Source: Nemertoderma westbladi | Taxonomy: Eukaryota > Animalia > Xenacoelomorpha | Length of the DNA stretch: 64,000 nucleotides | Direction of reading: 5' to 3' | Assembly (NCBI GenBank): GCA_032718475.1 | Contig: JAUCBJ010003987.1 | Coordinates: 1-64,000, forward strand | Part shown: positions 4,544 through 40,599 of the stretch, one piece after another | How the letters are laid out: the number at the start of each line of letters is the position of its first letter | Position numbering within the stretch: the stretch's first letter is position 1 | The notes under the pieces: model-generated | The model's database searches: none | Seen by the model: only the letters and a program-made list of their open reading frames with translations | What the model was told of the DNA's origin: nothing | Position numbers and translations under genes: made by a program

Positions 4544-5974
4544 TCAACAAGTTTTACTGCATTTGGACTTTTCGGAAAGACAATCATCCTCATTCATAGA
4601 AATACATTCTGTGTTCCGTTTGGTGATCACAGACCACTGGCGGGGAACAGACGAACTAAATATCGCGAATAGAACGCCGACGCAACCGTAGAGAACGGCT
4701 GCAACGAGGAACACATTCCTCCACTGCTCCCGAGTTCCATCTGCCGTTGTCACGCTCACCAAATAGGGTGCGGCTAGTGTAAGCCCCGAGCCTAGGGTGT
4801 TACCGGCACCCACTGTAACACCCACATGGGAGGGTGCCACCTCGTTGTGATTAACCATAAACCCACCACCGTACGAACAACCAAGTCCAGTGAAACATAG
4901 GCTTAATAGGAAGACAGATATTCCTGGGTTAGTTTCCGGCACCCACCCCACGCACGCCATAGACACTCCGCATATACAGACACCCACACTGTTTAACAAT
5001 TTCCTAGTCACCGTGGCGGAAATAATCCTTCTTTTAATTAGTAAATCTGCGAGCCAAGAGAAACTTACTAACCCCACTAAGTTACCGACATAAGGCAGAG
5101 ACGATATGAACCCATTCCTCTCTATAGCGAATTCTAAAACTTCCTCCATGTAGGACGGAAGTTGTGTTGCCAAGGTTACAAGTACAGTTAAGGACATGGA
5201 GGTCATTATCATTGGTGCCCAAATAGCAACGTCACATAATAACAGTTTCCATGGTATCGAGAGTTTAACATATTCTTTTTTAGTTATTTGTAGTAAATAT
5301 TCTTTCTCTTGGTTGCTAATCCGTGGATGATGCGTCGGCGAGTCGTATAAGAAGAAATAGAACAGGATTGTTGTAATAAATGATATTCCTCCGCTGATGT
5401 AGTACAGAGACGGCCAACCCCCGTCGAATCCGTGTACAGCTAGCCAACCACCGGCCTGCATTGTCATTATTATACCCAATGGGAAGCCGGCCCATGTTAA
5501 TGCAATCATCTGACTGCAGTGTACGGGGGCGGTCCATGAATGGATGAGTATGTGGAACGACGGGAAGAATGGGCCAACAAACACGCCCTGTAAGAAACGA
5601 AACACAATAAGAGCTGCCCAATGCCATCTAGCGGCGACTGGGTGCAACAACGTGACTACAGTGGCCAGGGCAGAGGAAACCACTAAGGATATTCTAGGTC
5701 CGTAACTTGTTGCTATGCAACCGCCGGACACCGAACCCACACCGTAACCCCAGAAGACTGCACTCAGAATCAATCCTTCTATAGATTTATTCCAATGGAA
5801 AACATTGTAGCCAAGGTCGCCATCTGTTTCGTTGTTATTGGCATTTACAGTTGTCATGGGAACTATTGTAATAGCGATGGAATATCTCGATATATTCAGT
5901 ACAATTGCTCCACAAACGATAAGAATAATGACTGTAAGCCGACAGCTTCCAACCAAGCGCAGTTCATTTACCAT
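4544..5974 (-). CDS. SLC17-family (sialin/VGLUT/inorganic phosphate cotransporter-like) MFS anion transporter, intronless
   Basis: 476 aa with ~12 hydrophobic segments. SLC17-type motifs: FHWNKSIEGLILSAVFWGY, RFLQG, GWPSLYY, DSPTHHPRISNQEKEYL, IPW, LPSYMEEVL, NGFISSLPY, TRKL, W(R)NVF. Confidence 0.9.
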   Translation of the reverse strand: MVNELRLVGSCRLTVIILIVCGAIVLNISRYSIAITIVPMTTVNANNNETDGDLGYNVFHWNKSIEGLILSAVFWGYGVGSVSGGCIATSYGPRISLVVSSALATVVTLLHPVAARWHWAALIVFRFLQGVFVGPFFPSFHILIHSWTAPVHCSQMIALTWAGFPLGIIMTMQAGGWLAVHGFDGGWPSLYYISGGISFITTILFYFFLYDSPTHHPRISNQEKEYLLQITKKEYVKLSIPWKLLLCDVAIWAPMIMTSMSLTVLVTLATQLPSYMEEVLEFAIERNGFISSLPYVGNLVGLVSFSWLADLLIKRRIISATVTRKLLNSVGVCICGVSMACVGWVPETNPGISVFLLSLCFTGLGCSYGGGFMVNHNEVAPSHVGVTVGAGNTLGSGLTLAAPYLVSVTTADGTREQWRNVFLVAAVLYGCVGVLFAIFSSSVPRQWSVITKRNTECISMNEDDCLSEKSKCSKTC

Positions 5975-6520: not shown

Positions 6521-7424
6521 AGATAAAGATAAATTCCTAGATGTTAGAACGGGGTTGAATTCAATAATTAAAATCGTAGTGGTCTTTTCTTATGTCAATT
6601 ATGCAAGGTATGTGGTGCAGTACTAATATTATTTTATTTATTTGTATGTAATTAATTCCGGACTACTTACGGGGTAACTTGCCAGTTACCCCTAAAGACG
6701 TTTTCAGATTTAAAATCCTCATTGAATTCTGCCCCAGATACGTTAAATAAATTTATGAAATCCCCCCCCCCCCCCCCCCTTACAATACATCAAGGGCCAA
6801 CAATTGGCCAATTTGTTTGGTAGTAACTTTGAAATTTATCTACCAATGGTCCCCGGCTGCCCTTTCTTTAATTTTTCATGAAAAACCGCAAATAATAACC
6901 TGCAAAATAGTTATTTATAAAATTATTTAATTGTTTATTAATAAATTTTAATTATTAATAATTGAAATTATACGTCAGGGGACACACCGCAAAGTATATT
7001 CAATCTTGTTTCCATATCATTAGTGGAATATTTACCGAAATTCCGATATTCTTCTGCCCACCTGTATTATAATTTTCACTCGTTGCTCTTATTAGCAAGG
7101 GCTTCGCTTTTGCCAAAAGCATTGTAAATAGTTAAAAAATTATACTGTTGAACACTTCCTCTTTTTTTTATTGAATTATATTTATTTCATTTTCAATAAT
7201 TAACAGAATAAAGAAAATTACATTTAATTAAAAAAAAATTGAATACAAAATAATGTAAGTCCTACTACGAATTGTACTTATATAGTTTTATATTTATTTC
7301 CAGTTTTTAACTTATACTTTCAGTTTAAAATCTTGGGTAATTTAGTTCTAGTTACTTTTTTAAACAATTGCTGTTTCACGTCAGAAAAAATGCCAGAAAC
7401 AATTTTAGTTCTATTTTGTATTCA

Positions 7425-10400
7425 GTTCGCAGCACTAGTCCCTCGGTTGGAGTCCCGTATCTAGCTAGTTTCTGTTCGCAGCACTAGTCCCTCGGTTGGA
7501 GTCCCGTATCTACCTAGTTTCTGTTCGCAGCACTAGTCCCTCGGTTGGAGTCCGTATCTACCTAGTTTCTGTTCGCAGCACTAGTCCCTTGGTTGGAGTC
7601 CCGTATCTAGCTAGTTTATGTTCGCAGCACTAGTCCCTCGGTTGGAGTCCAGTATTTAGCTAGTTTCTGTTCGCAGCACTAGTCCCTCGGTTGGAGTCCA
7701 GTATTTAGCTAGTTTCTGTTCGCAGCACTAGTCCCTTGGTTGGAGCCCGTATCTACCTAGTTTCTGTTCGCAGCACTAGTCCCTTGGTTGGAGTCCCGTA
7801 TCTAGCTAGTTAATGTTCGCAGCAGTAGTCCCTCGGTTGGAGTCCAGTATTTAGCTAGTTTCTGTTCGCAGCACTAGTCCCTCGGTTGGAGTCCGTATCT
7901 ACCTAGTTTCTGTTCGCAGCACTAGTCCCTTGGTTGGAGCCCGTATCTACCTAGTTTCTGTTCGCAGCACTAGTCCCTTGGTTGGAGCCCGTATCTACCT
8001 AGTTTCTGTTCGCAGCACTAGTCCCTTGGTTGGAGTCCTGTATCTAGCTAGTTTATGTTCGCAGCACTAGTCCCTCGGTTGGAGTCCAGTATATAGCTAG
8101 TTTCTGTTCGCAGCACTAGTCCCTCGGTTGGAGTCCAGTATTTAGCTAGTTTCTGTTCGCAGCACTAGTCCCTTGGTTGGAGCCCGTATCTACCTAGTTT
8201 CTGTTCGCAGCACTAGTCCCTTGGTTGGAGTCCCGTATCTAGCTAGTTTATGTTCGCAGCACTAGTCCCTCGGTTGGAGTCCAGTATTTAGCTAGTTTCT
8301 GTTCGCAGCACTAGTCCCTTGGTTGGAGCCCGTATCTACCTAGTTTCTGTTCGCAGCACTAGTCCCTTGGTTGGAGTCCCGTATCTAGCTAGTTTATGTT
8401 CGCAGCACTAGTCCCTCGGTTGTAGTCCAGTATTTAGCTAGTTTCTGTTCGCAACACTAGTCCCTCGGTTGGCGTCCAGTATTTAGCTAGTTTCTGTTCG
8501 CAGCACTAGTCCCTCGGTTGGAGTCCCGTATCTAGCTAGTTTCTGTTCGCAGCACTAGTCCCTCGGTTGGAGTCCAGTATTTAGCTAGTTTCTGTTCGCA
8601 ACACTAGTCCCTCGGTTGGAGTCCCGTATCTAGCTAATTTCTGTTCGCAGCACTAGTCCCTCGGTTGGAGTCCCGTATCTACCTAGTTTCTGTTCGCAGC
8701 ACTAGTCCCTCGGTTGGCGTCCAGTATTTAGCTAGTTTCTGTTCGCAGCACTAGTCCCTCGGTTGGAGTCCCGTATCTAGCTAGTTTCTGTTCGCAGCAC
8801 TAGTCCCTCGGTTGGCGTCCAGTATTTAGCTAGTTTCTGTTCGCAGCACTAGTCCCTCGGTTGGAGTCCCGTATCTAGCTAGTTTCTGTTCGCAGCACTA
8901 GTCCCTCGGTTGGAGTCCAGTATTTAGCTAGTTTCTGTTCGCAACACTAGTCCCTCGGTTGGAGTCCCGTATCTAGCTAATTTCTGTTCGCAGCACTAGT
9001 CCCTCGGTTGGAGTCCGTATCTACCTAGTTTCTGTTCGCAGCACTAGTCCCTTGGTTGGAGCCCGTATCTACCTAGTTTCTGTTCGCAGCACTAGTCCCT
9101 TGGTTGGAGTCCCGTATCTAGCTAGTTTATGTTCGCAGCACTAGTCCCTCGTTTGGAGTCCAGTATTTAGCTAGTTTCTGTTCGCAGCACTAGTCCCTCG
9201 GTTGGAGTCCAGTATTTAGCTAGTTTCTGTTCGCAGCACTAGTCCCTTGGTTGGAGCCCGTATCTACCTAGTTTCTGTTCGCAGCACTAGTCCCTTGGTT
9301 GGAGTCCCGTATCTAGCTAGTTTATGTTCGCAGCACTAGTCCCTCGGTTGGAGTCCAGTATTTAGCTAGTTTCTGTTCGCAGCACTAGTCCCTCGGTTGG
9401 AGTCCGTATCTACCTAGTTTCTGTTCGCAGCACTAGTCCCTTGGTTGGAGCCCGTATCTACCTAGTTTCTGTTCGCAGCACTAGTCCCTTGGTTGGAGCC
9501 CGTATCTACCTAGTTTATGTTCGCAGCACTAGTCCCTCGGTTGGAGTCCAGTATTTAGCTAGTTTCTGTTCGCAGCACTAGTCCCTCGGTTGGAGTCCAG
9601 TATTTAGCTAGTTTCTGTTCGCAGCACTAGTCCCTTGGTTGGAGCCCGTATCTACCTAGTTTCTGTTCGCAGCACTACTCCCTTGGTTGGAGTCCCGTAT
9701 CTAGCTAGTTTATGTTCGCAGCACTAGTCCCTCGGTTGGAGTCCAGTATTTAGCTAGTTTCTGTTCGCAGCACTAGTCCCTTGGATGGAGCCCGTATCTA
9801 CCTAGTTTCTGTTCGCAGCACTAGTCCCTTGGTTGGAGTCCCGTATCTAGCTAGTTTATGTTCGCAGCACTAGTCCCTCGGTTGGAGTCCAGTATTTAGC
9901 TAGTTTCTGTTCGCAGCACTAGTCCCTCGGTTGGCGTCCAGTATTTAGCTAGTTTCTGTTCGCAGCACTAGTCCCTCGGTTGGAGTCCCGTATCTAGCTA
10001 GTTTCTGTTCGCAGCACTAGTCCCTTGGTTGGAGTCCAGTATTCAGCTAGTTTCTGTTCGCAGCACTAGTCCCTTGGTTGGAGCCCGTATCTACCTAGTT
10101 TCTGTTCGCAGCACTAGTCCCTTGGTTGGAGTCCCGTATCTAGCTAGTTTATGTTCGCAGCACTAGTCCCTCGGTTGGAGTCCAGTATTTAGCTAGTTTC
10201 TGTTCGCAGCACTAGTCCCTCGGTTGGCGTCCAGTATTTAGCTAGTTTCTGTTCGCAGCACTAGTCCCTCGGTTGGAGTCCCGTATCTAGCTAGTTTCTG
10301 TTCGCAGCACTAGTCCCTTGGTTGGAGTCCAGTATTTAGCTAGTTTCTGTTCGCAACACTAGTCCCTCGGTTGGAGTCCAGTATTTAGCTAGTTTCTGTT

Positions 10401-13400
10401 CGCAGCACTAGTCCCGCGGTTGGTGTTCCGTATCTAGCTAGTTTATGTTCGCAGCACTAGTCCCTCGGTTGGAGTTCCGTATCTAGCTAGTTTATGTTCG
10501 CAGCACTAGTCCCTTGGTTGGAGTCCCGTATCTAGCTAGTTTATGTTCGCAGCACTAGTCCCTCGGTTGGAGTCCAGTATTTAGCTAGTTTCTGTTCGCA
10601 GCACTAGTCCCTCGGTTGGAGTCCCGTATCTAGCTAGTTTCTGTTCGCAGCACTAGTCCCTCGGTTGGAGTCCAGTATTTAGCTAGTTTCTGTTCGCAGC
10701 ACTAGTCCCTCGGTTGGAGTTCCGTATCTAGCTAGTTTCTGTTCGCAGCACTAGTCCCTTGGTTGGAGTCCCGTATCTAGCTAGTTTCTGTTCGCAGCAC
10801 TAGTCCCTTGGTTGGAGTCCCGTATCTAGCTAGTTTATGTTCGCAGCACTAGTCCCTCGGTTGGAGTCCAGTATTTAGCTAGTTTCTGTTCGCAGCACTA
10901 GTCCCTCGGTTGGAGTCCCGTATCTAGCTAGTTTCTGTTCGCAGCACTAGTCCCTTGGTTGGAGTCCCGTATCTAGCTAGTTAATGTTCGCAGCAGTAGT
11001 CCCTCGGTTGGAGTCCAGTATTTAGCTAGTTTCTGTTCGCAGCACTAGTCCCTCGGTTGGAGTCCGTATCTACCTAGTTTCTGTTCGCAGCACTAGTCCC
11101 TTGGTTGGTGCCCGTATCTACCTAGTTTCTGTTCGCAGCACTAGTCCCTTGGTTGGAGCCCGTATCTACCTAGTTTCTGTTCGCAGCACTAGTCCCTTGG
11201 TTGGAGTCCTGTATCTAGCTAGTTTATGTTCGCAGCACTAGTCCCTCGGTTGGAGTCCAGTATATAGCTAGTTTCTGTTCGCAGCACTAGTCCCTTGGTT
11301 GGAGCCCGTATCTACCTAGTTTCTGTTCGCAGCACTAGTCCCTTGGTTGGAGCCCGTATCTACCTAGTTTCTGTTCGCAGCACTAGTCCCTTGGTTGGAG
11401 TCCTGTATCTAGCTAGTTTATGTTCGCAGCACTAGTCCCTCGGTTGGAGTCCAGTATATAGCTAGTTTCTGTTCGCAGCACTAGTCCCTCGGTTGGAGTC
11501 CAGTATTTAGCTAGTTTCTGTTCGCAGCACTAGTCCCTTGGTTGGAGCCCGTATCTACCTAGTTTCTGTTCGCAGCACTAGTCCCTTGGTTGGAGTCCCG
11601 TATCTAGCTAGTTTATGTTCGCAGCACTAGTCCCTCGGTTGGAGTCCAGTATTTAGCTAGTTTCTGTTCGCAGCACTAGTCCCTTGGTTGGAGCCCGTAT
11701 CTACCTAGTTTCTGTTCGCAGCACTAGTCCCTTGGTTGGAGTCCCGTATCTAGCTAGTTTATGTTCGCAGCACTAGTCCCTCGGTTGTAGTCCAGTATTT
11801 AGCTAGTTTCTGTTCGCAGCACTAGTCCCTCGGTTGGCGTCCAGTATTTAGCTAGTTTCTGTTCGCAGCACTAGTCCCTCGGTTGGAGTCCCGTATCTAG
11901 CCCTCGGTTGGAGTCCAGTATTTAGCTAGTTTCTGTTCGCAGCACTAGTCCCTTGGTTGGAGCCCGTATCTACCTAGTTTCTGTTCGCAGCACTAGTCCC
12001 TTGGTTGGAGTCCCGTATCTAGCTAGTTTATGTTCGCAGCACTAGTCCCTCGGTTGGAGTCCAGTATTTAGCTAGTTTCTGTTCGCAGCACTAGTCCCTC
12101 GGTTGGAGTCCGTATCTACCTAGTTTCTGTTCGCAGCACTAGTCCCTTGGTTGGAGCCCGTATCTACCTAGTTTCTGTTCGCAGCACTAGTCCCTTGGTT
12201 GGAGCCCGTATCTACCTAGTTTATGTTCGCAGCACTAGTCCCTCGGTTGGAGTCCAGTATTTAGCTAGTTTCTGTTCGCAGCACTAGTCCCTCGGTTGGA
12301 GTCCAGTATTTAGCTAGTTTCTGTTCGCAGCACTAGTCCCTTGGTTGGAGCCCGTATCTACCTAGTTTCTGTTCGCAGCACTACTCCCTTGGTTGGAGTC
12401 CCGTATCTAGCTAGTTTATGTTCGCAGCACTAGTCCCTCGGTTGGAGTCCAGTATTTAGCTAGTTTCTGTTCGCAGCACTAGTCCCTTGGATGGAGCCCG
12501 TATCTACCTAGTTTCTGTTCGCAGCTCTAGTCCCTTGGTTGGAGTCCCGTATCTAGCTAGTTTATGTTCGCAGCACTAGTCCCTCGGTTGGAGTCCAGTA
12601 TTTAGCTAGTTTCTGTTCGCAGCACTAGTCCCTCGGTTGGCGTCCAGTATTTAGCTAGTTTCTGTTCGCAGCACTAGTCCCTCGGTTGGAGTCCCGTATC
12701 TAGCTAGTTTCTGTTCGCAGCACTAGTCCCTTGGTTGTAGTCCAGTATTTAGCTAGTTTCTGTTCGCAGCACTAGTCCCTTGGTTGGAGCCCGTATCTAC
12801 CTAGTTTCTGTTCGCAGCACTAGTCCCTTGGTTGGAGTCCCGTATCTAGCTAGTTTATGTTCGCAGCACTAGTCCCTCGGTTGGAGTCCAGTATTTAGCT
12901 AGTTTCTGTTCGCAGCACTAGTCCCTCGGTTGGCGTCCAGTATTTAGCTAGTTTCTGTTCGCAGCACTAGTCCCTCGGTTGGAGTCCCGTATCTAGCTAG
13001 TTTCTGTTCGCAGCACTAGTCCCTTGGTTGGAGTCCAGTATTTAGCTAGTTTCTGTTCGCAACACTAGTCCCTCGGTTGGAGTCCAGTATTTAGCTAGTT
13101 TCTGTTCGCAGCACTAGTCCCGCGGTTGGTGTTCCGTATCTAGCTAGTTTATGTTCGCAGCACTAGTCCCTCGGTTGGAGTTCCGTATCTAGCTAGTTTA
13201 TGTTCGCAGCACTAGTCCCTTGGTTGGAGTCCCGTATCTAGCTAGTTTATGTTCGCAGCACTAGTCCCTCGGTTGGAGTCCAGTATTTAGCTAGTTTCTG
13301 TTCGCAGCACTAGTCCCTCGGTTGGAGTCCCGTATCTAGCTAGTTTCTGTTCGCAGCACTAGTCCCTCGGTTGGAGTCCAGTATTTAGCTAGTTTCTGTT

Positions 13401-14180
13401 CGCAGCACTAGTCCCTCGGTTGGAGTTCCGTATCTAGCTAGTTTCTGTTCGCAGCACTAGTCCCTTGGTTGGAGTCCCGTATCTAGCTAGTTTCTGTTCG
13501 CAGCACTAGTCCCTTGGTTGGAGTCCCGTATCTAGCTAGTTTATGTTCGCAGCACTAGTCCCTCGATTGGAGTCCAGTATTTAGCTAGTTTCTGTTCGCA
13601 GCACTAGTCCCTCGGTTGGAGTCCCGTATCTAGCTAGTTTCTGTTCGCAGCACTAGTCCCTCGGTTGGAGTCCCGTATCTAGCTAGTTTTTGTTCGCAGC
13701 AGTAGTCCCTCGGTTGGAGTCCCGTATCTAGCTAGTTTCTGTTCGCAGCACTAGTCCCTCGGTTGGAGTCCAGTATTTAGCTAGTTTCTGTTCGCAGCAC
13801 TAGTCCCTCGGTTGGAGTCCAGTATTTAGCTAGTTTCTGTTTGCAGCACTAGTCCCTTGGTTGGAGTCCCGTATCTAGCTAGTTTCTGTTCGCAGCACTA
13901 GTCCCTCGGTTGGAGTCCAGTATTTAGCTAGTTTCTGTTCGCAGCACTAGTCCCTCGGTTGGAGACCAGTATTTAGCTAGTTTGTGTTCGCAGCACTAGT
14001 CCCTCGGTTGGAGTCCCGTATCTAGCTAGTTTCTGTTCGCAGCACTAGTCCCTCGGTTGGAGTCCAGTATTTAGCTAGTTTCTGTTCGCAGCACTAGTCC
14101 CTCGGTTGGAGTCCAGTATTTAGCTAGTTTCTGTTGGCAGCACTAGTCCCTCGGTTGGAGTCCCGATATCTAGCTAGTTT
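7425..14180. repeat. Satellite array, 48-49-bp unit (GTTCGCAGCACTAGTCCCTCGGTTGGAGTCCCGTATCTAGCTAGTTTCT), ~138 copies
   Basis: Period 49 (unit starts at 7425 and 7474); a few recurrent variants; no unique spacers. Confidence 0.97.
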
Positions 14181-20472: not shown

Positions 20473-20592
20473 GGATTCTAATGGTGGTGAAAGTTGATAT
20501 TAGCACCAGTCCAACAAAATAATATTAATTACTATGCCTATTAATAATTCATAAATAAGAATTACTCTGGATAAAATCTGAGTTTGGGAACC

Positions 20593-21366
20593 ATGTTACT
20601 ATTCTTATATTTATATTTAATACTCTCAGTACTTTACTTACATCCTATATTTGGTATAGGAACCACCACAGCATACAGAAGAGTAGCTGGTACCGACCAC
20701 ATTCTAGAAGGAAGTAACCTTGGCAACGAAAGCTTTAAAGACAGCGTCGCTCAGTGCGCAATAACTTGTTCGTCCACCCATGGATGCTTATCGTTTAACT
20801 ACAAGCAGGTTGAGAAGCTCTGTCAGCTAAAAGATATCGAGGCTGGTGATGTTGATACAACCGGTCTGGTTCAACATGTAAAAGGGGGGTACTTCTCCCG
20901 GTCTCCGACGTGTAAAGTTGGCTGGAAATACAGACAGGGGAGCTGCTATTGGCTGGATACAGCGCCGACAACTTGGGCCAATGCCAAGGCCGAATGTGAA
21001 GAGAAGAGAGCCAAACTGCTGTACTTGAACCCGGAGGAGAACTTCAAAGCGGAAATGCGATGGTTAAAAGAGATGGTTGAACCGTATGGAGTATCTGCAT
21101 ACTTTGTAGGAGCCACTGACAGCGATCATGAAGGTGTGTGGAAATGGAGCAATGGGTTGCAACTAACAGTGGAGCAAATGTTTGCAAGGTTTGGACAACT
21201 GACGTTCTCGAATCATAATGGTTTAACTGGTGGTAATCGTGGCCTGGACAACTATGGAAATGAACAACACGTTCTGCAATTTTATCCGTCATTTTTAACA
21301 TTTAACGATACCAACGATTTAAAGCATCGTCCCTTTATTTGCAAATACTCAGCGGAACTAAAATAA
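20593..21366 (+). CDS. Secreted PAN/Apple-domain + C-type lectin-like domain protein, intronless
   Basis: ATG at 20593, then a hydrophobic signal peptide. PAN-like CAITCSSTHGCLSFNY...CQL. CTLD CKVGW..GSCYW...TWANAKAEC...VGATD..HEGVWKW...FICK. Confidence 0.88.
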   Translation: MLLFLYLYLILSVLYLHPIFGIGTTTAYRRVAGTDHILEGSNLGNESFKDSVAQCAITCSSTHGCLSFNYKQVEKLCQLKDIEAGDVDTTGLVQHVKGGYFSRSPTCKVGWKYRQGSCYWLDTAPTTWANAKAECEEKRAKLLYLNPEENFKAEMRWLKEMVEPYGVSAYFVGATDSDHEGVWKWSNGLQLTVEQMFARFGQLTFSNHNGLTGGNRGLDNYGNEQHVLQFYPSFLTFNDTNDLKHRPFICKYSAELK

Positions 21367-22035: not shown

Positions 22036-23691
22036 GACTGCTTGCATTACATGTTTAAGAGAGATTATAACATTATTTATGTAGATGCATACGATTGTCC
22101 ACAAGCTGTTCTCATGGCGAAAACAACCAAAGTCAAGAATATGGACTCAAAACGGTTTGTGAGATGGATCATATCCATCTGGTTCATATGCATATGGATC
22201 ATATTCATATGGATCATAATCTATATGGATCATATCAATAAGATTATCGATAATATTGCTAAAATTATGTTCTATAAGATATCGATAATATTTTTAATAT
22301 TATGTTCTGAGTCATTGTTTTTAACTATAAAACGCTTCTTAAAATACTTACTAGATGTTCAGCAATTTCCACTGCGGGCAGTTTAGCACACAGAGAATGA
22401 TGAGTCCGCTGCAGTTTGGGTCAACTTATTGAACTGAACTGAACTGGTTGAACTGAAAAATTTAGTTTGTATTTTTGTAAGCGGATCCATTCCGCTCTAC
22501 ATTTCCAACCTAAATTGGAAGGGAGCCGAATAAACAATATTGGACCCAGAGAAATACCGAATCAGTAAGTGGGCACCAACAAGCCCACTTACAGCTACAG
22601 GAAATCATACCAGGCAAATTAATACCCCACTAAGTGGAACCTTATGGCAGACAGATGAGTGGTGTGACTGGACTTGTGGGGGGGGGGGGGGGGGGGGTAA
22701 TAACATTACTTACATTAATATAATAACGCTAATAATACTACCGTATGTGATAATTCCAATATTAATGAACGTGTTAGTACGCAAATTAATATTTTAATAA
22801 ATAACAACCAAAATATTACTGGTACTGGCACAATAAATAATGTATATAATAACAATTTGATGAATAACAACATAGAAAATAATGCACAAAATAATTCATA
22901 ATACAGTGAATAATGAAGCAAAAAATAATACGCCTAGTGGCGGGAATGAAGGTGGGGATGCAGGTGGGCCATACTAGTGGCAATATAAGTAATGTGTCGA
23001 CCGGAAGAGTGTGTGGAGAAGGGGTTAACCGAGACGCTCATAGAAGTGACGGGTGGGGGGGGGGGGGGGGGGCAATAAATACCCCACAGGCATCGGCTGG
23101 GGGGCGTGCACAGTGAAACAAAACTCGGAGTGCCAATGCCGGAAGAGAATAGAAGATTAGCGAATATCTATGAAGCCGTACTACCGGGTAGGGGATGAGG
23201 TGGTCACGCCATAATCGGCCAAATTAAGGAACGTCAAACCCATTCAGGAGAGTTCATCCGGGAGATCGAAACTAGATCTCATGAATGTGGATATGATGCC
23301 AGAAGTGGACGACGCGGGGAAAGTGGGAGGATTACTCGAGGTAATGTTGCTGTTGCTACGAGCAACTGGAGGAGTCGAGATAGGACGGACAGTGAACCGT
23401 CAATAATCGAGGTGGAGGAGACAAACCGGTGGGACCTAACTTCGGGAGATTGCTGTCGCCCCGAAGAGACGCGGTCTGTGGATTTATATTACGCAATGGG
23501 AGGAGGGTATAGGATGTACCGAGAGAATGAATGAAACGAGATGATTTGAGGGGATCGTAGAGAAACTTCCCATTAACAAATTAACCCATGAAAACCATTA
23601 CTCCTCTCTCAAACCTTCACAAACCAAAATTAATAAAATTATCCGATGCATCCCATTTTCTCACTACCGATCGCAATCATCGTCAAACACT

Positions 23692-24390
23692 AGTAGTAAG
23701 AGTATGCCATCCTCGGCGACAGTTAGACCAACTTCACACCTTAGGTGTTAAGTAGGTCATTAATTAATTAAACAATTAATTAATTTGTCGATTAATCAAT
23801 TAATTAATTGTTTAATCGATCGATTTGTATCAAATAATGTTGCCAAAGGCAATTTAATTTGACAAAAATCAATCAGATAGGGACGTGCGATGAATAGATT
23901 GTACTACAGTAGATAAAATATACAATACAATAGGAACAATAATACAATATACAGTGCATTTGTATTATTTTTGCCGTACAATAGAATGATAGAATGAAAT
24001 ATAAAGAAGCGAGCGGGGCCCAAAACATAAATTAGCGTCACACGATAATAAAATGGGCCAGTTTGATCCTAGCTCAGTCCCTCAATAATCTGTGGCTGTT
24101 TGGGCTCTTATTAGACGTAGCATGACTAACCCCATTGAATCCTATGTTGAGTTATACTGTATACCAACCTGGGGCTGCCACAAAGTTTAAATTATTTAAA
24201 CCTCCAGCTTCGTTATCATGTAGACCATTGTCAAATCGCCCGAGAAATTAGAATAAACATCTGGTTTTGCAATAGATTGCATTCTTTCACATTGTATTGT
24301 GAAGCAGCCTGCGCGCCTAATCGCACGCTCCAAGTATTAGCTCAGTGACAAAGCCAATACCCAAAAACCATATGTCAAATTAACCCTCAA
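23692..24390 (+). repeat. Left terminal inverted repeat of the Polinton-like element
   Basis: Reverse complement of 28312-29013 with scattered substitutions. Confidence 0.95.
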
Positions 24391-24606
24391 GAAAAATCCA
24401 AGAAACATCTGGTTTGCAATAGATTATTCTTTTTCACAACTCCATTCTAGCTTCCCTCTATAATAGCCCCCATTCACTGCATTCCCATTCATTCTCTAAT
24501 TTTCATTTTTAAAAGTTTTATTTATTTTAATAAAAGTTTTATTTATTTAAAATTTTGTAAAATCATTTAACGAAAATTGAATACTATCAATTGAAATTGC
24601 TATATA

Positions 24607-25325
24607 ATGCCTAGTTATGAAAAATGCATGGTTTGTGATAAAGAAATGAGACGAGACAGTATATCCCGCCATATGAGTATACATAGAAAGCAAGGTGTAA
24701 TGGAACCTTCCCCAAAGAAATTAAAAAATAATGATGATATTTTTAGTGAAGAAGAGAACAAAAAGAGAGTTGAGAGTGATTTTCTAGAGATTAAACAAAT
24801 GATGAAACATAAATTCGAGAAAATCATGAATATTTTGAAAAATATACAGAAACAGCCACATAGTGAAAAGGATGATGAGATGAAGATGATAAATCAGAGG
24901 AAAGTGAAAAGGTTGAGAATGATGAAACGGAGAGTGAGATAGAGAAAGAAGAAAATGAGAGTGGTGATGAAGAAAATGAGAGCGAGAAAGAAGTCGAGGA
25001 ACATGAAAGTGGGGAGGAGAATGACTCAGATAATGAGGAGATATTAAGACATGTATTAGGAAATAAAAATAAATTGCAGAAAATAATTAGACAATTGAAT
25101 GAAATGCAGAAACATTCGCATAAGGAGAGTGATAATGATGGAAATGAGAGTGGTGAGGATGAATCGGAGGAGAGTAGCGATGACAGTGAGGAAGAATCAG
25201 AGGAGAGTAGCGATGACAGTGAGGAAGCATCAGAGGAGAAAGATAATGAAAATGGACAGAAAATCAGAGTAGGGAATGGAAAAGTTATATCTCCAGCACT
25301 GTTGTATATCGACCTAGGAGTATGA
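24607..25325 (+). pseudogene. C2H2-like zinc finger + highly acidic protein, one frameshift near 24879
   Basis: CMVC-x11-HMSIH and PSPKKLK (NLS-like). Shifting frame at GATGAG/ATGAAG gives an open D/E/S-rich frame that continues into ORF 25074-25325. AATAAA at ~25445. Confidence 0.7.
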
Positions 25326-25569
25326 ACAGTCGTACAGTTAATGCGAGACATTAATTATAACTGAAATATTGTATATGTTTGAAATATTTATTATATTTAG
25401 TCGTATTAATTATGTAATTTCATAATAATATGCTTAATTAAACAAATAAAGTCAACTTGATCCTATTTTAAATGCATAATGAATGAGTAACCAAAACATC
25501 AAATTAGTTAAACATTTTGACAACAGATAAACAAATATTCTCCTGTGGGGAGAAGTGGTGTGCTGGAGA

Positions 25570-26462
25570 AGTGGCTGAAGGTGAGGCTGTGGCTGAAGGT
25601 GAGGCTGTGGCTGAGGGTGAGGCTGTGGCTGTGGCTGAAGGTGAGGCTGTGGCTGAGGGTGAGGCTGTGGCTGTGGCTGTGGCTGTGGCTGTGGCTGTGG
25701 CTGTGGCTGTGGCTGAAGGTGAGGCTGTGGCTGAGGGTGAGGCTGTGGCTGTGGCTGTGGCTGTGGCTGAGGCTGTGGCTGTGGCTGTGGCTGTGGCTGT
25801 GGCTGTGGCTGTGGCTGAAGGTGAGGCTGTGGCTGAGGGTGAGGCTGTGGCTGTGGCTGTGGCTGTGGTTGTGGCTGTGGCTGTGGTTGTGACTGTGGCT
25901 GTGGCTGTGGCTGAGGCTGAGGCTGTGGCTGTGGCTGTGGCTGTGGCTGTGGCTGAAGGTGAGGCTGAGGGTGAGGCTGTGGCTGTGGCGTTGTGGCTGT
26001 GGCTGTGGCTGTGGCTGTGGCTGTGGCTGTGGCTGTGGCTGTGCTGTGGCTGTGGCTGTGGCTGTGGCTGTGGCTGTGGCTGTGGCTGTGGCTGTGGCTG
26101 TGGCTGTGGCTGTGGCTGTGGCTGTGGCTGTGGCTGTGGCTGTGGCTGTGGCTGTGGCTGTGGCTGTGGCTGTGGCTGTGGCTGAAGGTGAGGCTGTGGC
26201 TGAGGGTGAGGCTGTGGCTGTGGCTGTGGCTGTGGCTGTGGCTGTGGCTGTGGCTGTGGCTGTGGCTGTGGCTGTGGCTGTGGCTGTGGCTGTGGCTGTG
26301 GCTGTGGCTGTGGCTGAAGGTGAGGCTGTGGCTGAGGCTGTGGCTGTGGCTGTGGCTGTGGCTGTGGCTGTGGCTGTGGCTGTGGCTGTGGCTGTGGCTG
26401 TGGCTGTGGCTGTGGCTGTGGCTGTGGCTGTGGCTGTGGCTGTGGTTGTGGCTGAGGCTGTG
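25570..26462. repeat. (GCTGTG)n hexamer microsatellite with interspersed GAAGGTGAG/GAGGGTGAG units
   Basis: Directly visible, ~900 bp, in the middle of the Polinton-like element. Confidence 0.97.
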
Positions 26463-27344
26463 TCTCAGTGCCTCACTCCCCCACTCGTTTAACAGTACAG
26501 GCTAAAGCCATTCTTTAGATGCTGGAGGGGAATCTGGTTTGCATTGGATAACTTGATTAGTGAGTATATCTACATTTGGGAGATAGTGCGCTGTCTTATG
26601 AGTAAAAGCCAAGAGAGTAGTCCTTGGGTTCGCTCTTCTTAACTTTACAATATAACTTAACCCTTATTTAAAGTTTTAAAAAATATTTCTTAGTCGAGTA
26701 ATTTTCTGAAATATATTATAGAAATTTCATGAATAAATAGACCTAACAGTAATAATTGTTGTGAATAAATAGTCCTAATACTAATATTAAAGGAAGTCAA
26801 ACAAACAAATAAATTTCATCAGCATCGTCCTACGCATGCAAATACTGTATGAGAGTTCCACATAATAGGATCTCGACAATTAATAACCAACTTTTCTGAC
26901 TTTGTGGTGGCTCTCCTTTCATAGACACAGAAGTGTTAGTTGCTTTGGTAAGTAATCATTCTCATTAGTTAGTGATTGTAGTTTGGAAAGTGCTTCCCGC
27001 GCGCAATCTGTATCATCAATAGAAAACGCATAAACATATCGTCGATCGGAAATTTCTAATATGTCACAGTTATAGGCAGTATAAATCTTTATTCGTTCTG
27101 AAATTATTTCTTCATAGTCATCAACGCTGGCGCCAAGGCAGATGGTGGTGGCTTCCTTTACCTGATTGTCTAGTGCTTCCTAACCTGTATAATTCAACAA
27201 AGTTTAAAGTTTTTACTGTGTGTGTCTTTTTCATAGCCTATGTTAAATCAAATTACATTCATGTAACTATTGTAACATTTATATTATAAAATGGATATGG
27301 TGAGGGATTGAACTTATTGTTACTTGATTTATTTACCTTGTCAA

Positions 27345-27659
27345 TTAATCCCATGCTTCTTCTCTCCATTCTTTTTCTATGCCCCACGCTTCTTTCGGCC
27401 ATTCAACGCTAGGGTTTTCGGTTTTGATTTGTTCTTCTTCTTTTCTTTTTTCGTGAATGGACTTCCCATTTCGATACTGACAGTATCTTAAATGGTATTG
27501 TTTTTCTGCCTCGGGAAAGTAATGGCATTGGATGTTCGGGCATTGAACTATTTTTTCACCTGGATAATTTCTTCTACATTTTCTTAAATGTTTGATAAAT
27601 CTTTCTACATGGATTCTGTGGGTTGTTTCATATGGGCATATTATATACTCATTATCCAT
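27345..27659 (-). CDS. GTSF1: Miniature GTSF1/Asterix (gametocyte-specific factor 1)-like protein, 104 aa, carried by the Polinton-like element
   Basis: Two tandem U11-48K-type CHHC fingers with exact C-x5-H-x9-H-x3-C spacing (C8/H14/H24/C28 and C40/H46/H56/C60). CPY..H.I..RF..HL.KCR.N.P matches GTSF1 finger 1. Acidic Trp-rich tail ends EEAWD. AATAAA lies ~12 nt after the stop (27328-27333, minus strand). The symbol denotes family homology, not orthology. Confidence 0.88.
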   Translation of the reverse strand: MDNEYIICPYETTHRIHVERFIKHLRKCRRNYPGEKIVQCPNIQCHYFPEAEKQYHLRYCQYRNGKSIHEKRKEEEQIKTENPSVEWPKEAWGIEKEWREEAWD

Positions 27660-28311
27660 TATAAAAAGTATATGATAAACTATATTGTATTTTATATTGT
27701 ATATTATAAAATTGTTAATTTAATTACTAATAATAATTATTACCTTAGTGAATATTGAATGAATATAGTGAATATTGAATGAATATAGAGAAGTGGTTTA
27801 TTATATTATATTAAAGTAATACTCAATCTAAGGCTTATTTATCGACAAATAAATTTATTATAATATATTAACATTTGATGTATTTTATTTTTTAGATTTA
27901 CCAAAATCACGCACTATAATAGAATAATAACTAACTAACTTATCCATCACCATCACAACAGAATAATAACAATAAAAGTTCGAAAGTACACCCTGCATCC
28001 TATGTGTAGCCTTGTATGGGCATATACAGTAATATAATCACTGTTATCCATAGTATCAAAAAGACAAACTTAACTTGAAAGAAAACTTAACTTGATAGAA
28101 AACTTAGTTTAAGTGAGGATTTAATTTAAAAAACTTTGAAAACTTCACTTTAACGTTTTTTAGAGATAATGATTTAACTTTACATGATTTTTATTTATAT
28201 AGAAAGGTCCACCTTAACATTTCAAACAAGGCCGTAGTTTTCGGCATGGCATGCGTGAAGGATTATGCATTACTTCAAACAATAAAACTATAGTATCTAG
28301 TATAGAGATGG

Positions 28312-29013
28312 TTGAGGATTAATTTGACATATGGTTTTTGGGTACTGGCTTTGTCACTGAGCTAATACTTGGAGTGTGCGATTAGGCGCGCAGGCTGCTT
28401 CACAGCACAATGTGAAAGAATGCAATCTATTGCAAAACCAGATGTTTATTGTAATTTCTCGGGCGATTTGACAATGGTCTACATGATAACGAAGCTGGAG
28501 GTTTAAATAATTTAAACTTTCGTGGCAACCCCATGTTGGTATACAGTATAACTCAACATAGGATTCAATGGGATTAGTCATGCTACATCTAATAAGAGCC
28601 CAAACAGCCACAGATTATTGAGGGGCTGAGCCAGGACCAAACTGGCCCATTTCATTTTCGTGTGAGGCTAATTTATGTTTTGGGCCCCGCTCGCTTCTTT
28701 ATATTTCATTCTATCATTCTACTGTACGACAAAAATAATACAAATGTACTGTATATTGTATTATCTGTTCCTATTGTATTGTATATTTTATCTACTGTAG
28801 TACAATCTATTCATCGCGCGTCCCTATCTGATTGATTTGTGTCAAATTAAATTGCCTTTGGCAACATTATTTGATACAAATCGATCGATTAAACAATTAA
28901 TTAATTGTTTAATCGACCAATTAATTAATTGTTTAATTAATTAATGACCTACTTAACACCCAAGGTGCAAAGTGGGTCCAACTGTCGCCGAAGAGGGCGT
29001 TCATCTTACTACT
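28312..29013 (-). repeat. Right terminal inverted repeat of the Polinton-like element
   Basis: Mirror of 23692-24390. Confidence 0.95.
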
Positions 29014-29419
29014 AACACTATCTATAAATCTTCATCCATATTACCTCTTCAGCTACTATACAATCACCAAACCGCTTCACTTGTGTATGATCTTAAGATT
29101 TTCAAAAAATATCTCACAGCTACTCCACTCGCTTGGCTACCACCTCTGGGTTCATAGTGGCTTCATAGTCACCATCTGGAACTCGATCCCTGCTGATATC
29201 AAGTAACTAAATCGTCCACCTTGGTGGTATTTAAAAAAAAAAACAAACAATTTAATTAATTATTAATTAATTAGGTTCCACTAGCTCTGCTATATTACCT
29301 GGGTCTTTGCCGTTAACTAACTAATACTCACCATTTCATTTCATAACGCTAAGTGCAATTAATATTTGGTTGTAAGTGAAGGAAATCAATAAAGTTACAA
29401 AGTTAGAAAGTTAAAACAT

Positions 29420-34934: not shown

Positions 34935-36203
34935 TTAAATGCTGATTTTCATTTCAATTCTTTCTGCAGGATCTACAGCAGTGAACTCCAGCCACCATGG
35001 CCCATGCTGCCCGCCAGCACCATATATCCCATTCAAATTTGCATGCGAACAACTCTTGTACCACCAAGCGCCTCTGAAATGCACAGCACAGTTATCAAAA
35101 CCATATTCATCATTGTCCCGATCCTTTGTGGTAAAGGACTGACCATCTAACCAATCAGGGTGAGAGGGGCCACTTATTAACATAGCATTCCCTGCAGTCC
35201 CTTGGTATCCTGCAATTCTTAAAGTATAAGTTGTGCTTTCCGAACCAACTCGGAATAAAGAATATTCCGCGAATCCATATTTCCCCCTATACCAGATATC
35301 CACTCTCAGTTTAACCCCTCCAGCAGTAAGATTGTGTATGGTATCCAACCCTAACCAAAATTCGTTGCTAACATCACCGAATCCAGACTTATAATACGCC
35401 CACTCCCGATAAAAGTCCATGGCTCCATTAATTCTCCTCTGAATCACCAACCATGGACCACCTGGGACCATGGTGTCACATCTGATTAAACCATTTAGGC
35501 CATAATCACTACTGTAGATTCTAATTGTATTATTCAGTTGATAATTGTGACAAAGATTATTTGGAGGAACTCCTAGTGCCATAATTATTGCTTCCTTTTG
35601 TTCATCAATCTTACCAATGAATTCATTTGATTGTTCATTAACTTTCCCATCAAATATGTCACTTAGTTCATTAAGTGTATTTCTCAAGGTTTCAGTATTC
35701 GTACTAATGTTATAAGTAAATTCATTTATATTTACCTTCACCACATCATGGAATATTTTTGAATGATGAATTAGATTACTATATACTATATCATTGTGGT
35801 CTTCGACGTTTGCGTTAAAGTTGCTAGTTAGATAATCTAGTTGCTCACCTATTGTCTCTTCTTTATCCTTTAGACTGTCAGCAAATTTATCCAACTTCAT
35901 TATGATTTCTATTTGGTTATTTATCATGAAAAAAGAAATCCTTGCCAAGGCAGCCATCACAACTAGTAGTCCAATAAGTGTTATAATTATAATTATCCAC
36001 TTGCATTTTGTTGGATTTCTCTGAGCAATTTTCTCACCCTCAGTTTTGAGTGTTCCTTCACTGATTATCGGATCCGGCACATCATATACGGAATATACGC
36101 CTTCTTCAATAACTGATGGCTTTTGTTTACCCATCAATGTTAACTCATAAACAGGATTAGTCAACTTAACTGCATCATCATTTATTTTTAGAGAAGTTGC
36201 CAT
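34935..36203 (-). CDS. Type-II transmembrane FReD receptor, copy 2 (422 aa), intronless
   Basis: Cytoplasmic N-terminus, single TM (WIIIIITLIGLLVVMAALA), helical stalk, FReD (WLVIQRR, GFGD...EFWLGL, FTTKDRDND, GAWWY..C..ANLNG, EMKI). Confidence 0.93.
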   Translation of the reverse strand: MATSLKINDDAVKLTNPVYELTLMGKQKPSVIEEGVYSVYDVPDPIISEGTLKTEGEKIAQRNPTKCKWIIIIITLIGLLVVMAALARISFFMINNQIEIIMKLDKFADSLKDKEETIGEQLDYLTSNFNANVEDHNDIVYSNLIHHSKIFHDVVKVNINEFTYNISTNTETLRNTLNELSDIFDGKVNEQSNEFIGKIDEQKEAIIMALGVPPNNLCHNYQLNNTIRIYSSDYGLNGLIRCDTMVPGGPWLVIQRRINGAMDFYREWAYYKSGFGDVSNEFWLGLDTIHNLTAGGVKLRVDIWYRGKYGFAEYSLFRVGSESTTYTLRIAGYQGTAGNAMLISGPSHPDWLDGQSFTTKDRDNDEYGFDNCAVHFRGAWWYKSCSHANLNGIYGAGGQHGPWWLEFTAVDPAERIEMKISI

Positions 36204-38156: not shown

Positions 38157-40599
38157 CCCGCCTATACCCGGTTTTGTTTTGCCACATAGACACCCGCTTT
38201 GGGTCAATTTGACCCATACCTACAAAAAACGACTTTGTAGGGGAAATAATCAATTTCCACACTGCCAATATAATTATAGGGTTAAAATATAGTACAAGTG
38301 ATTGTACAGAGTTATATATCGATTACCAATATCATGTTATCGATTGTTATCAATATCATGTTATCAATAGTATGTTCGGACTCTAGGTGCAACTAGTGCA
38401 ATACGTTGATACACGTGAATGTACGTCGCAGATGAAGTGTGCACAGTTGTCGCATTTTCGTGAATACTTTGTAGACCCAGACTTTTGTGGGCACCTGTAG
38501 CATCTCCCACGTTTGGGAACTTTGGGTGCTGAAACACTGGAGCCCACCAAGGATGTACTGAGCTGCTGCTCTCGCTGGGCTATAGTACGAGGTGCCTCAG
38601 CAATATGACGGGATAGGGTACGAGACGTCATACTGATCTTCATAAGACCCTGAGATACCTCTGTTAGGTAATTGAACCTCGCCCGATTAGTGCGACGGGT
38701 TGTTGGGAAGAGAGTGTAATACACCACAAACCCGGCAACTGCAGCGACATCAACTACCACCATGAAGACCCGCATGGGCCAGCGGCGGGTGGCCCTGCGT
38801 GCTGTGAAATGACCCACCATCGCATCCATCACATCAACACCACATTTTTGCGCATTATAATCCAAAATCATGCTGGGTTTGTGGGTCGCCTCGGCTGAAA
38901 CTTCCTGATCAAAGTGGGACGATGATAACATCAGCACACACTTGCTTGCCTTTGGTATATACGAAACCAATGTTGCGTCATTGGTGTGGCCGAACAAACT
39001 GGAATGGACTTGTCTTCCCCGTGTGTCAACGAACTCTTGGGGAACCTCCGGCTTGTTACGCCTGACAGTTCCTAGGTAGCTGAGCCGATGCTGCTTCAGT
39101 TCCAATAAAAGTTCCATACTACTAAAGAAGTTGTCTGCGCAAATGTTTCTATTAGTTCCAAATAAAGGCTGCGCCAAGTCCAGGACCACACGCTTAGACT
39201 GTCCCTTTTCTCGTGCTTCATTCGGAAGCCGGCCGCAATAAACTTGGCCATTGTATGGATAGAATGTCTCAGAGTCATATAGCCACCAGAACTTGATGCC
39301 GTACTTCGCTGGCTTTGATGGGATGTATTGCCGGAATGGACACCTACCACGGAATGGTGACAGCATCTCGTCCACAGTCACAGTCGGACCTGGTACATAG
39401 GACGATCGGAGACGGTTTACAAACATGTCCCACACTTCCCGGATTGGGGCCAGTTTGTCAGTAGCTCGCCGTTCTACACGAGTCTCTTTGTTGTCAAAGC
39501 GAAAGTGGCGCAAAATTTCAACGAAACGATTTCGGGACATAGTGGCACTGTAAATGGGCCGGCCATATTCATTGTGGAAGAGTGAACGTACTGGAAGTCG
39601 ATTGTCTCGATGAACTCCTGCAAAGATAAGGATGCCGAGGAAACCATACAGCTCGTCGAGTGTAACGTCAGGGTCAATCGCACTGTTGTTCGTTGCGTCC
39701 AAAACGATCATCAACATTTCATGTGAAATGAAATTGGTAAATGTGTCCAGTGGGGAAGACATATTCTTATCTCTCACATGTTTGGGAATGGACCGACCCT
39801 CACGAATGATATTGATGGATCGAACTTGAGAAGTTGGAAGACATGGCGTCTTGCTCCACTCAATGTTGCCCCTACGTGATACATATAATGTTGCCCCTTC
39901 ACCTTCTCCATTGCTCTCCCCGACTCCTCCGGCATCACTCATCCCGCACTCCTCCACACCATCTCCGGCAGACACATTGCTTCCAGAGTCTTCCACCTCA
40001 CTCTCACCACCATCCAGTTCATCATTGTCATCTATTGCATCACTATCAACTCCATCGCTGTCATCCAGGAACTCATCTTGGGACGGAAAAAGGTACCCAT
40101 AGGCATTCACAGGACGTCTTGTCCGATTAGGATAACGATTCGACATACTAAATGATACCTCCGAAATTTGAGATCTCTGAGAGTGTTTATGTTTATCCAG
40201 TTACCTTTCAGCCTTTCAACTATATGATTAATATCAACATACAATCTCTACCGGTACAGCAGTACACTAAGATTCACTGGAGAAAATTCAAAATTCCCAC
40301 GTTTTTCAAGTTACCAATGGTACATTTCCTACTATGTATAAGCGCTTGTATAAGATAAGGAACAGCATTTACACTATTGGGTCAATTTGACCCACTTTGG
40401 TAAACCACGTGTACAAGGTGTTTAGATGTCTACTGCTAGAACACCATTTCGGTATATGTTATTATATTATAGCTTATGGTTACTAACTAGTAGGGGTAGG
40501 ATGTCACAAGATATTATGACCATCACGCCAGCCTGTACTTCACAGCTGGATTTTTAACAACGAGTTGGGCCAATTTGACCCACATCTGGTAACCGCGGG
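38157..40599 (-). mobile_element. Full-length piggyBac transposon (2443 bp)
   Basis: TTAA at 38153-38156 and 40600-40603. Termini CCCGC.../...GCGGG. Subterminal palindromes GGGTCAATTTGACCC at 38201 and 40379, with a variant at 40567. Confidence 0.93.
38383..40146 (-). CDS. piggyBac transposase, 587 aa, intact
   Basis: Acidic N-terminus; DDD triad motifs TVDEML, ADNFF, GVDVMD; PSKPAKYGIK; RRWP; C-terminal cysteine-rich domain. Confidence 0.95.
   Translation of the reverse strand: MSNRYPNRTRRPVNAYGYLFPSQDEFLDDSDGVDSDAIDDNDELDGGESEVEDSGSNVSAGDGVEECGMSDAGGVGESNGEGEGATLYVSRRGNIEWSKTPCLPTSQVRSINIIREGRSIPKHVRDKNMSSPLDTFTNFISHEMLMIVLDATNNSAIDPDVTLDELYGFLGILIFAGVHRDNRLPVRSLFHNEYGRPIYSATMSRNRFVEILRHFRFDNKETRVERRATDKLAPIREVWDMFVNRLRSSYVPGPTVTVDEMLSPFRGRCPFRQYIPSKPAKYGIKFWWLYDSETFYPYNGQVYCGRLPNEAREKGQSKRVVLDLAQPLFGTNRNICADNFFSSMELLLELKQHRLSYLGTVRRNKPEVPQEFVDTRGRQVHSSLFGHTNDATLVSYIPKASKCVLMLSSSHFDQEVSAEATHKPSMILDYNAQKCGVDVMDAMVGHFTARRATRRWPMRVFMVVVDVAAVAGFVVYYTLFPTTRRTNRARFNYLTEVSQGLMKISMTSRTLSRHIAEAPRTIAQREQQLSTSLVGSSVSAPKVPKRGRCYRCPQKSGSTKYSRKCDNCAHFICDVHSRVSTYCTSCT

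Follow-up and report, generated by a model that had tools for sequence, protein, structure and literature searches.

A 64,000-nucleotide stretch of genomic DNA from Nemertoderma westbladi (GCA_032718475.1, contig JAUCBJ010003987.1, positions 1 to 64,000 of the forward strand; the window hereafter) contains a GTSF1 homologue, apparently under selection, aboard a Maverick-type element. Judged from sequence, this context appears to be the real finding. The original prediction for the gene held that a tryptophan repeat at the end of the protein, together with His17, reveals a PIWI-binding decoy; that claim should be dropped and not carried forward.

Results

A Maverick/Polinton-type element around the GTSF gene

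Besides LINE reverse transcriptases, the window, which is animal genomic DNA, encodes an IS4/piggyBac-type transposase and carries fibrinogen-domain, MFS and lectin genes. The GTSF gene lies in a short element about 650 nt inward of its right inverted repeat. The features of the element are:

23686..23691, plus strand: left target-site duplication AACACT (chance of an exact 6-mer ~3e-4)
23692..29013: non-autonomous element of 5,322 bp with Maverick/Polinton-type ends (AGTAGT...ACTACT termini, inverted repeats, 6-bp duplication)
23692..24390, plus strand: left terminal inverted repeat, 699 nt, 667/699 aligned nucleotides identical to the right one (95.4%)
24607..25325, plus strand: second, apparently broken cargo gene, with a 111-aa C2H2-like ORF that is followed by an acidic stretch in another frame
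25585..26462: (GGCTGT)n microsatellite inside the element, 146 copies, 878 nt
26922..27179, minus strand: 86-codon open frame lacking an ATG, downstream of the GTSF gene, possibly a remnant; no Pfam match
28312..29013, minus strand: right terminal inverted repeat, the partner of the left one
29014..29019, plus strand: right target-site duplication AACACT, identical to the left copy

Mavericks are described by (AGT)2//(ACT)2 ends, a 6-bp target-site duplication and repeats of 46-1,447 bp in the accessible text of PMC8097293; (AGT)2//(ACT)2 termini, a 6-bp duplication and long terminal inverted repeats are all found here. In the available descriptions, Maverick/Polinton elements with accessory genes share with the present element these ends, the duplication, the range of repeat lengths and the placement of accessory ORFs outside the core modules, whereas the present element has a length of 5.3 kb and is without core genes. 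No Pfam family for pPolB, integrase, ATPase, protease or capsids is detected in the element frames scanned, which are part of all frames, and the longest stop-to-stop frame outside the microsatellite is at most 176 codons. As this leaves no room for core genes, the element is classed only as a non-autonomous derivative.

The second cargo gene (24607..25325) matches no Pfam family. Its Atlas look-alikes (0.84-0.88) are mostly viral, which we regard as a lead only, and the viral contigs scanned contain no locus related to the C2H2-like ORF. Both cargo genes share a TATAATG start context (24601-24609, plus strand; 27657-27663, minus strand), possibly an element-specific start motif. Within the element, contig depth at 26591-26863 is far above that of the surroundings, suggesting a separate high-copy repeat.

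Elsewhere in the window we noted an intact 587-aa IS4/piggyBac-type transposase ORF (38383-40146, minus strand; Pfam DDE_Tnp_1_7, 1e-73), two paralogous intronless fibrinogen-domain genes with an N-terminal hydrophobic segment (34935-36203 and 51719-52954, both minus strand), an intronless PAN plus C-type lectin ORF (20584-21366) and a sialin-like MFS ORF (4544-5974). The relatives of this MFS gene, used as a check on the host lineage, share only 27-34% identity with it, molluscan proteins ranking ahead of insect ones. A long array of a 49-nt satellite (~50% GC) occupies ~7300-14000, and a 339-nt inverted repeat that is 96% complementary, with a 221-nt spacer, may represent a foldback element (1065-1963).

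An intact ORF of the GTSF1 family

The gene and its parts are as follows:

27328..27333, minus strand: AATAAA, a possible poly(A) signal (seen in DNA only), 12 nt downstream of the stop
27345..27659, minus strand: intronless GTSF1/Asterix-like ORF of 104 aa (Pfam zf-U11-48K, 1.5e-5; PDB and Foldseek matches to GTSF1)
27348..27404, minus strand: acidic Trp tail with EWxxEAW twice; W103-D104 occupies the place of the family [DE]xW[DE] motif
27480..27542, minus strand: CHHC finger 2 (C40, H46, H56, C60) with an atypical loop (N42, I43, Q44, extra C45)
27576..27638, minus strand: CHHC finger 1 (C8, H14, H24, C28) with basic R20, K27 and R30; H17 is a variable site

All eight zinc ligands of the tandem N-terminal CHHC fingers are present with regular spacing, and the AF2 model has a pLDDT of 86-96 across residues 1-60, which comprise the fingers. 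The translation ends in ...VEWPKEAWGIEKEWREEAWD*, and the residues originally named in it (W87, W92, W98, W103, H17, R20 and K27) are all borne out, as are the two EWxxEAW copies at the protein end (EWPKEAW-GIEK-EWREEAWD).

The end of the protein looks genuine, since a second in-frame stop follows four codons past the first, AATAAA is close by, and tblastn with 264 GTSF-like proteins reveals no separate C-terminal GTSF remnant in the window; two matches beyond the set bounds merely ran a few codons past the stop. On the same grounds we reject a premature stop.

In a comparison with PDB sequences the protein matches best mouse GTSF1 (6x46, 6e-10) and the GTSF1 chain 9nhb_E (7e-9), with U11-48K at only 0.0044, i.e. 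it is closer to GTSF1. Foldseek with the AF2 model places 6x46 and the chain of 9nhc (the SIWI-piRNA-target-GTSF1-Maelstrom complex) at the top, with VIA Z values of only 4.3 and 2.1 for the structural matches. The top Atlas matches score 0.95-0.96 and one of them is named GTSF1-like, while a TRM13-type cluster scores 0.85. Of the features that mark GTSF1/Asterix proteins, tandem CHHC fingers, affinity to GTSF1, a basic ridge and an acidic aromatic motif are observed.

Relatives were collected by a search of 1.84 billion representatives, which gave 477 matches. The best 150 of these were analysed and are 28-46% identical to our protein. A profile search gave 339 matches, the best 120 of which are mostly named vertebrate GTSF1. 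The quick tree of 139 finger regions (68 columns) gives our protein a long branch (1.61, compared with a median of 0.29) and does not place it, and we therefore name no lineage as donor. A word-based search that used this protein alone yielded no candidate among proteins of 57-182 aa, the viral contigs scanned hold no locus related to the GTSF ORF, and nothing in the viral structure library matches at E<=0.001. One metagenome locus (L001) was rejected as a chance match, consisting of a short similarity to the finger 1 region in a frame without CHHC spacing. The molluscan orthologues are 248-321 aa long.

The basic ridge of finger 1

For the comparison with characterized proteins, the mammalian numbering (R26, R29, K36, K39 and W98, W107, W112) was verified on a 167-aa orthologue (P0206) and on the accessible text of Arif 2022. 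Mammalian GTSF1 (6x46) and the 9nhb/9nhc chain share with our protein the basic sites 29, 36 and 39, the Trp cluster and the WxxxxW spacing, whereas mouse and mammalian GTSF1 and the 9nhb/9nhc chain are 63 and 45 residues longer, respectively, and have the usual finger 2 loop. It had been predicted that R29 and K36 are kept (as R20 and K27) while R26 is replaced by His17, which we confirm; a fourth ridge site, equivalent to K39, had been overlooked and is likewise basic (R30, just after finger 1). The quadruple mutant R26A/R29A/K36A/K39A is inactive (Arif 2022), and no single R26 mutant appears in the part of that text examined.

The further conclusion that the RNA-binding face is altered is not supported. 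Among the 148 relatives with a parsable finger 1 (from the best 150 of 477 matches, two being dropped), the four ridge sites are basic in 44, 135, 141 and 120, respectively. At the His17 site these diverse relatives have R/K in 44/148 and His in 5/148, among the latter named host genes of Aplysia, Polistes and Branchiostoma. Three basic sites out of four is the commonest state in this same set from the best 150 of 477 (100/148), all four being basic in only 27/148. In a vertebrate-heavy set the R26 position is Arg in 103/114 proteins, which explains the earlier impression of an altered site. The mammalian Arg is replaced by Glu in 9nhb_E, the GTSF1 chain of the SIWI complex, at the residue aligned to H17. 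We take this chain to be silkworm Gtsf1, going by the title of the PDB entry. Silkworm Gtsf1 is a proven activator of Siwi (PMC9808576). With R20, K27 and R30 kept and a finger 1 net charge of +5 (family medians +4 and +5), loss of the finger 1 RNA ridge, which had been regarded as a sign of a decoy, is not observed, and we reject His17 as a mark of lost function.

The tryptophan tail

The two EWxxEAW copies agree in 5/7 residues and 16/21 nucleotides at a 33-nt period, their flanks being without match. As shuffling the 44-aa tail 20,000 times reaches 5/7 in 405 cases (p ~0.02), a short duplication is likely and not certain; the repeat is probably real, if modest.

Of the best 150 of 477 relatives, 100 have a [DE]xW[DE] motif. 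W103 lies at +43 after finger 2 and the family motif at a median of +42.5 (n=94 placeable relatives), so that the protein stops just past the family core motif. Such an end is unusual, as the distance from the motif to the end of the protein is 10 residues or less in only 3/94 relatives and 150 residues in the median. None of the relatives (0/150 and 0/114) has four Trp in a 17-residue span downstream of the fingers, and the Trp density of the tail exceeds that of all 264. Mammalian GTSF1 has W98, W107, W112 and W121, with the same five-residue (WxxxxW) spacing between W107 and W112. The putative PIWI hook differs from the usual one in its higher density, not in kind.

The tail had been read as the design of a decoy. 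Its unusual shortness and density in Trp are upheld; what it was taken to mean is not supported, as there are short proteins that act positively. Bombyx Gtsf1L (BmGtsf1L) and Drosophila Tpp, as far as the available text describes them, resemble our protein in having two CHHC fingers and a short tail, and Gtsf1L also ends in Trp-Asp. The 39-aa tail of BmGtsf1L has W99-D100-D101 at its end, and W99 aids binding to BmAgo3 and Vreteno (PMC10711660). BmGtsf1L stimulates BmAgo3 slicing modestly but significantly (PMC9808576), and Tpp (CG14036), of 93 aa, is needed for piRNA production (PMC12184484). Proven activators, too, can have a short Trp tail or a non-basic residue at the site of His17, so that neither of these shows the protein to be a decoy. 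Differences exist nevertheless: Gtsf1L and Tpp are host genes, whereas ours has a mobile-element setting and an atypical finger 2 loop, and the Gtsf1L tail is described with one Trp and one Tyr compared with four Trp here.

Among the relatives we further noted a 107-aa protein (P0065, encoded on a 10.8-kb contig) that ends directly at an acidic W-D, and one of 156 aa (P0002) in which a finger-1-like unit is repeated and followed by a different Cys motif. Both genes may be mobile too.

The loop of finger 2

N42, I43, Q44 and Y62 stand where relatives have F/Y, N, A and D, respectively. Among proteins with two regular fingers (17 and 12 being dropped from the two sets of relatives), N42 and I43 occur in 0/133 and 0/102, i.e. 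0/235 for both sets, Q44 in 2/133 and Y62 in 4/133. The usual loop residues, a family habit seen among the relatives analysed here and not a published criterion, are therefore absent. The extra Cys45 could offer another zinc ligand. Should the protein fail to activate PIWI, the changed finger 2 loop and the missing C-terminal segment are likelier causes than His17 or the position of the stop.

Diverged copies and probable purifying selection

Four DNA runs of one organism, from at most three samples, were mapped onto the region, and variants were counted as distinct contigs, not as summed depth. At least four distinct contigs of run X1 overlap 27435-27525, with 1, 11, 18 and 37 differences. 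Two of these variants, those with 11 and 37 differences, were recovered again from a separate study (run X2), unchanged in length and in number of differences. Beyond the stop, loose contig ends lead into other sequence contexts. Divergence among the GTSF copies reaches ~10%, which makes it unlikely that the contigs are alleles, although X1 may be a pool.

The ORF differences, 34 ORF rows among 40 of 79, comprise 20 silent changes and 14 replacements, compared with 17-28% silent expected. The silent excess corresponds to a binomial p of 5e-8 to 1e-4 and a rough omega of 0.14-0.27, values that rest on rows scored singly and non-independent. In the same 34 rows among 40 of 79 the ratio of silent to replacement changes is 12:6 in the fingers, 4:7 in the linker and 4:1 in the Trp tail, and none of the 34 differences listed changes a Trp, a zinc ligand, H17, R20, K27 or R30. 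The proportion of silent differences (20/34) points to purifying selection, under which the diverged GTSF copies likely stand. Disrupted copies exist as well: one X2 contig has a gap of 7 nt at 27543 and one skips 799 nt.

Two further observations concern the structure of the copies. A 998-nt backward joint (28047 to 27050) in X1 and X3 contigs suggests a tandem duplication of the GTSF block in some copy. Upstream of the ATG, at 27660-27806, the sequence is AT-rich, and contigs of X1-X3 pass over ~142-145 nt of it, so that the promoter region varies between copies.

Discussion

The best explanation may be that an intact, divergent GTSF1-family gene is the cargo of a non-autonomous Maverick-type element with several diverged copies. 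Going by what is known of the family, finger 1 would grip piRNA-target RNA and the acidic Trp tail would bind PIWI, possibly more tightly through the repeat. Since the gene is carried and apparently maintained by the element, a role as a competitor is plausible on grounds other than those put forward originally. The protein would then be a PIWI-docking cargo that competes with host GTSF1 and so dampens silencing of the element, an antagonism suggested by the context only; we consider this quite possible, though short of probable. It appears somewhat unlikely that GTSF1, an activator of PIWI, was taken up by a Maverick family and made into a competitor of high avidity, i.e. a TE-encoded protein antagonist of the animal piRNA pathway. 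Competition is favoured by the element ends, the target-site duplication, the closeness of the gene to the inverted repeat, the variants, the silent bias, the Trp density, the finger 2 loop and the long branch, and by the way in which the central and C-terminal parts of longer GTSF1 proteins are wrapped around the PIWI domain (PMC13650160). Against it stand the broken copies, a selection signal that comes from 34 ORF rows among 40 of 79, and the harm that a broad block of the piRNA pathway should do to host fertility and hence to the element (PMC6719617).

Every classical activator feature tested is also present, and the Glu at the His17 site of 9nhb_E and the positive action of the short, W-D-ending BmGtsf1L and of Tpp likewise argue against competition. 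In a close rival, the product would be a genuine minimal activator of the Gtsf1L/Tpp type, accelerating slicing by a single PIWI paralogue to which it binds, and the element would benefit through self-restraint, through a pathway turned on its competitors or through a host that favours such copies. The basic ridge, the W-D at its canonical place, the existence of short host activators and the four Trp with WxxxxW spacing in mammalian GTSF1 are all in line with it; yet a selfish element would have little to gain from stronger silencing and the finger 2 loop departs from all 235 relatives checked, and we regard activation as rather unlikely. It is decidedly unlikely that the product is an RNA-binding zinc-finger protein repurposed for a partner other than PIWI, such as a Tudor domain, an RdRP or the element's own replication or expression. 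Nematode GTSF-1 did switch to RRF-3 (PMC13650160), the W-D end of BmGtsf1L binds a Tudor pocket of Vreteno (PMC10711660), and finger 2, with its extra Cys, weakly resembles a TRAF finger (Pfam E 0.015, below the cut-off); however, the nematode proteins, as described in the accessible text, have lost the aromatic motif and the basic ridge, both of which our protein retains. The broken neighbouring cargo ORF, the missing core genes and the disruption of some copies would suit a mere passenger, in which case a host gene was captured and is now decaying in the non-autonomous element, its silent bias left from an earlier phase, but the bias is seen among copies only up to ~10% apart and the ORF of the present copy is intact, making this very unlikely. 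We consider it extremely unlikely that the element acts at the RNA level, its piRNAs silencing host Gtsf1 mRNA in the way of the nxf2 piece of TART-A (PMC7785250), as selection appears to act on the protein and the nearest relative has only ~46% protein identity among the best 150 of 477, a comparison to which the host gene itself does not belong.

If the cargo does compete with host GTSF1, it would join other mobile elements that carry part of the host silencing machinery or a means to counter it, namely TART-A with its nxf2 capture and the VANC of VANDAL. As the accessible accounts describe them, TART-A works via piRNAs and VANC via DNA demethylation in plants, whereas here a whole cofactor protein is carried, with a hypothetical anti-silencing effect. 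A 2019 review states that no protein antagonist of the animal piRNA pathway from a mobile element had yet been reported (PMC6719617, accessible text), and no later description of one was found in the literature searched. Nor did that literature, whose coverage leaves out most subscription papers, yield a Maverick-borne GTSF1. GTSF1 and Polinton occur together in one review, which in its available text names both separately; the main text of the adintovirus paper contains no GTSF, gametocyte or PIWI, and the accessible parts of anti-silencing reviews include no TE-borne GTSF1.

A GTSF1 relative of 104 aa that a Maverick family apparently maintains makes it testable, with the established in vitro slicing assay, whether transposons of animals encode proteins that oppose the piRNA pathway. 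If the protein is an inhibitor, it would be a new counter-defence protein and a tool for blocking PIWI. If it is an activator this would be new as well, as a virus-like element would then carry a silencing cofactor.
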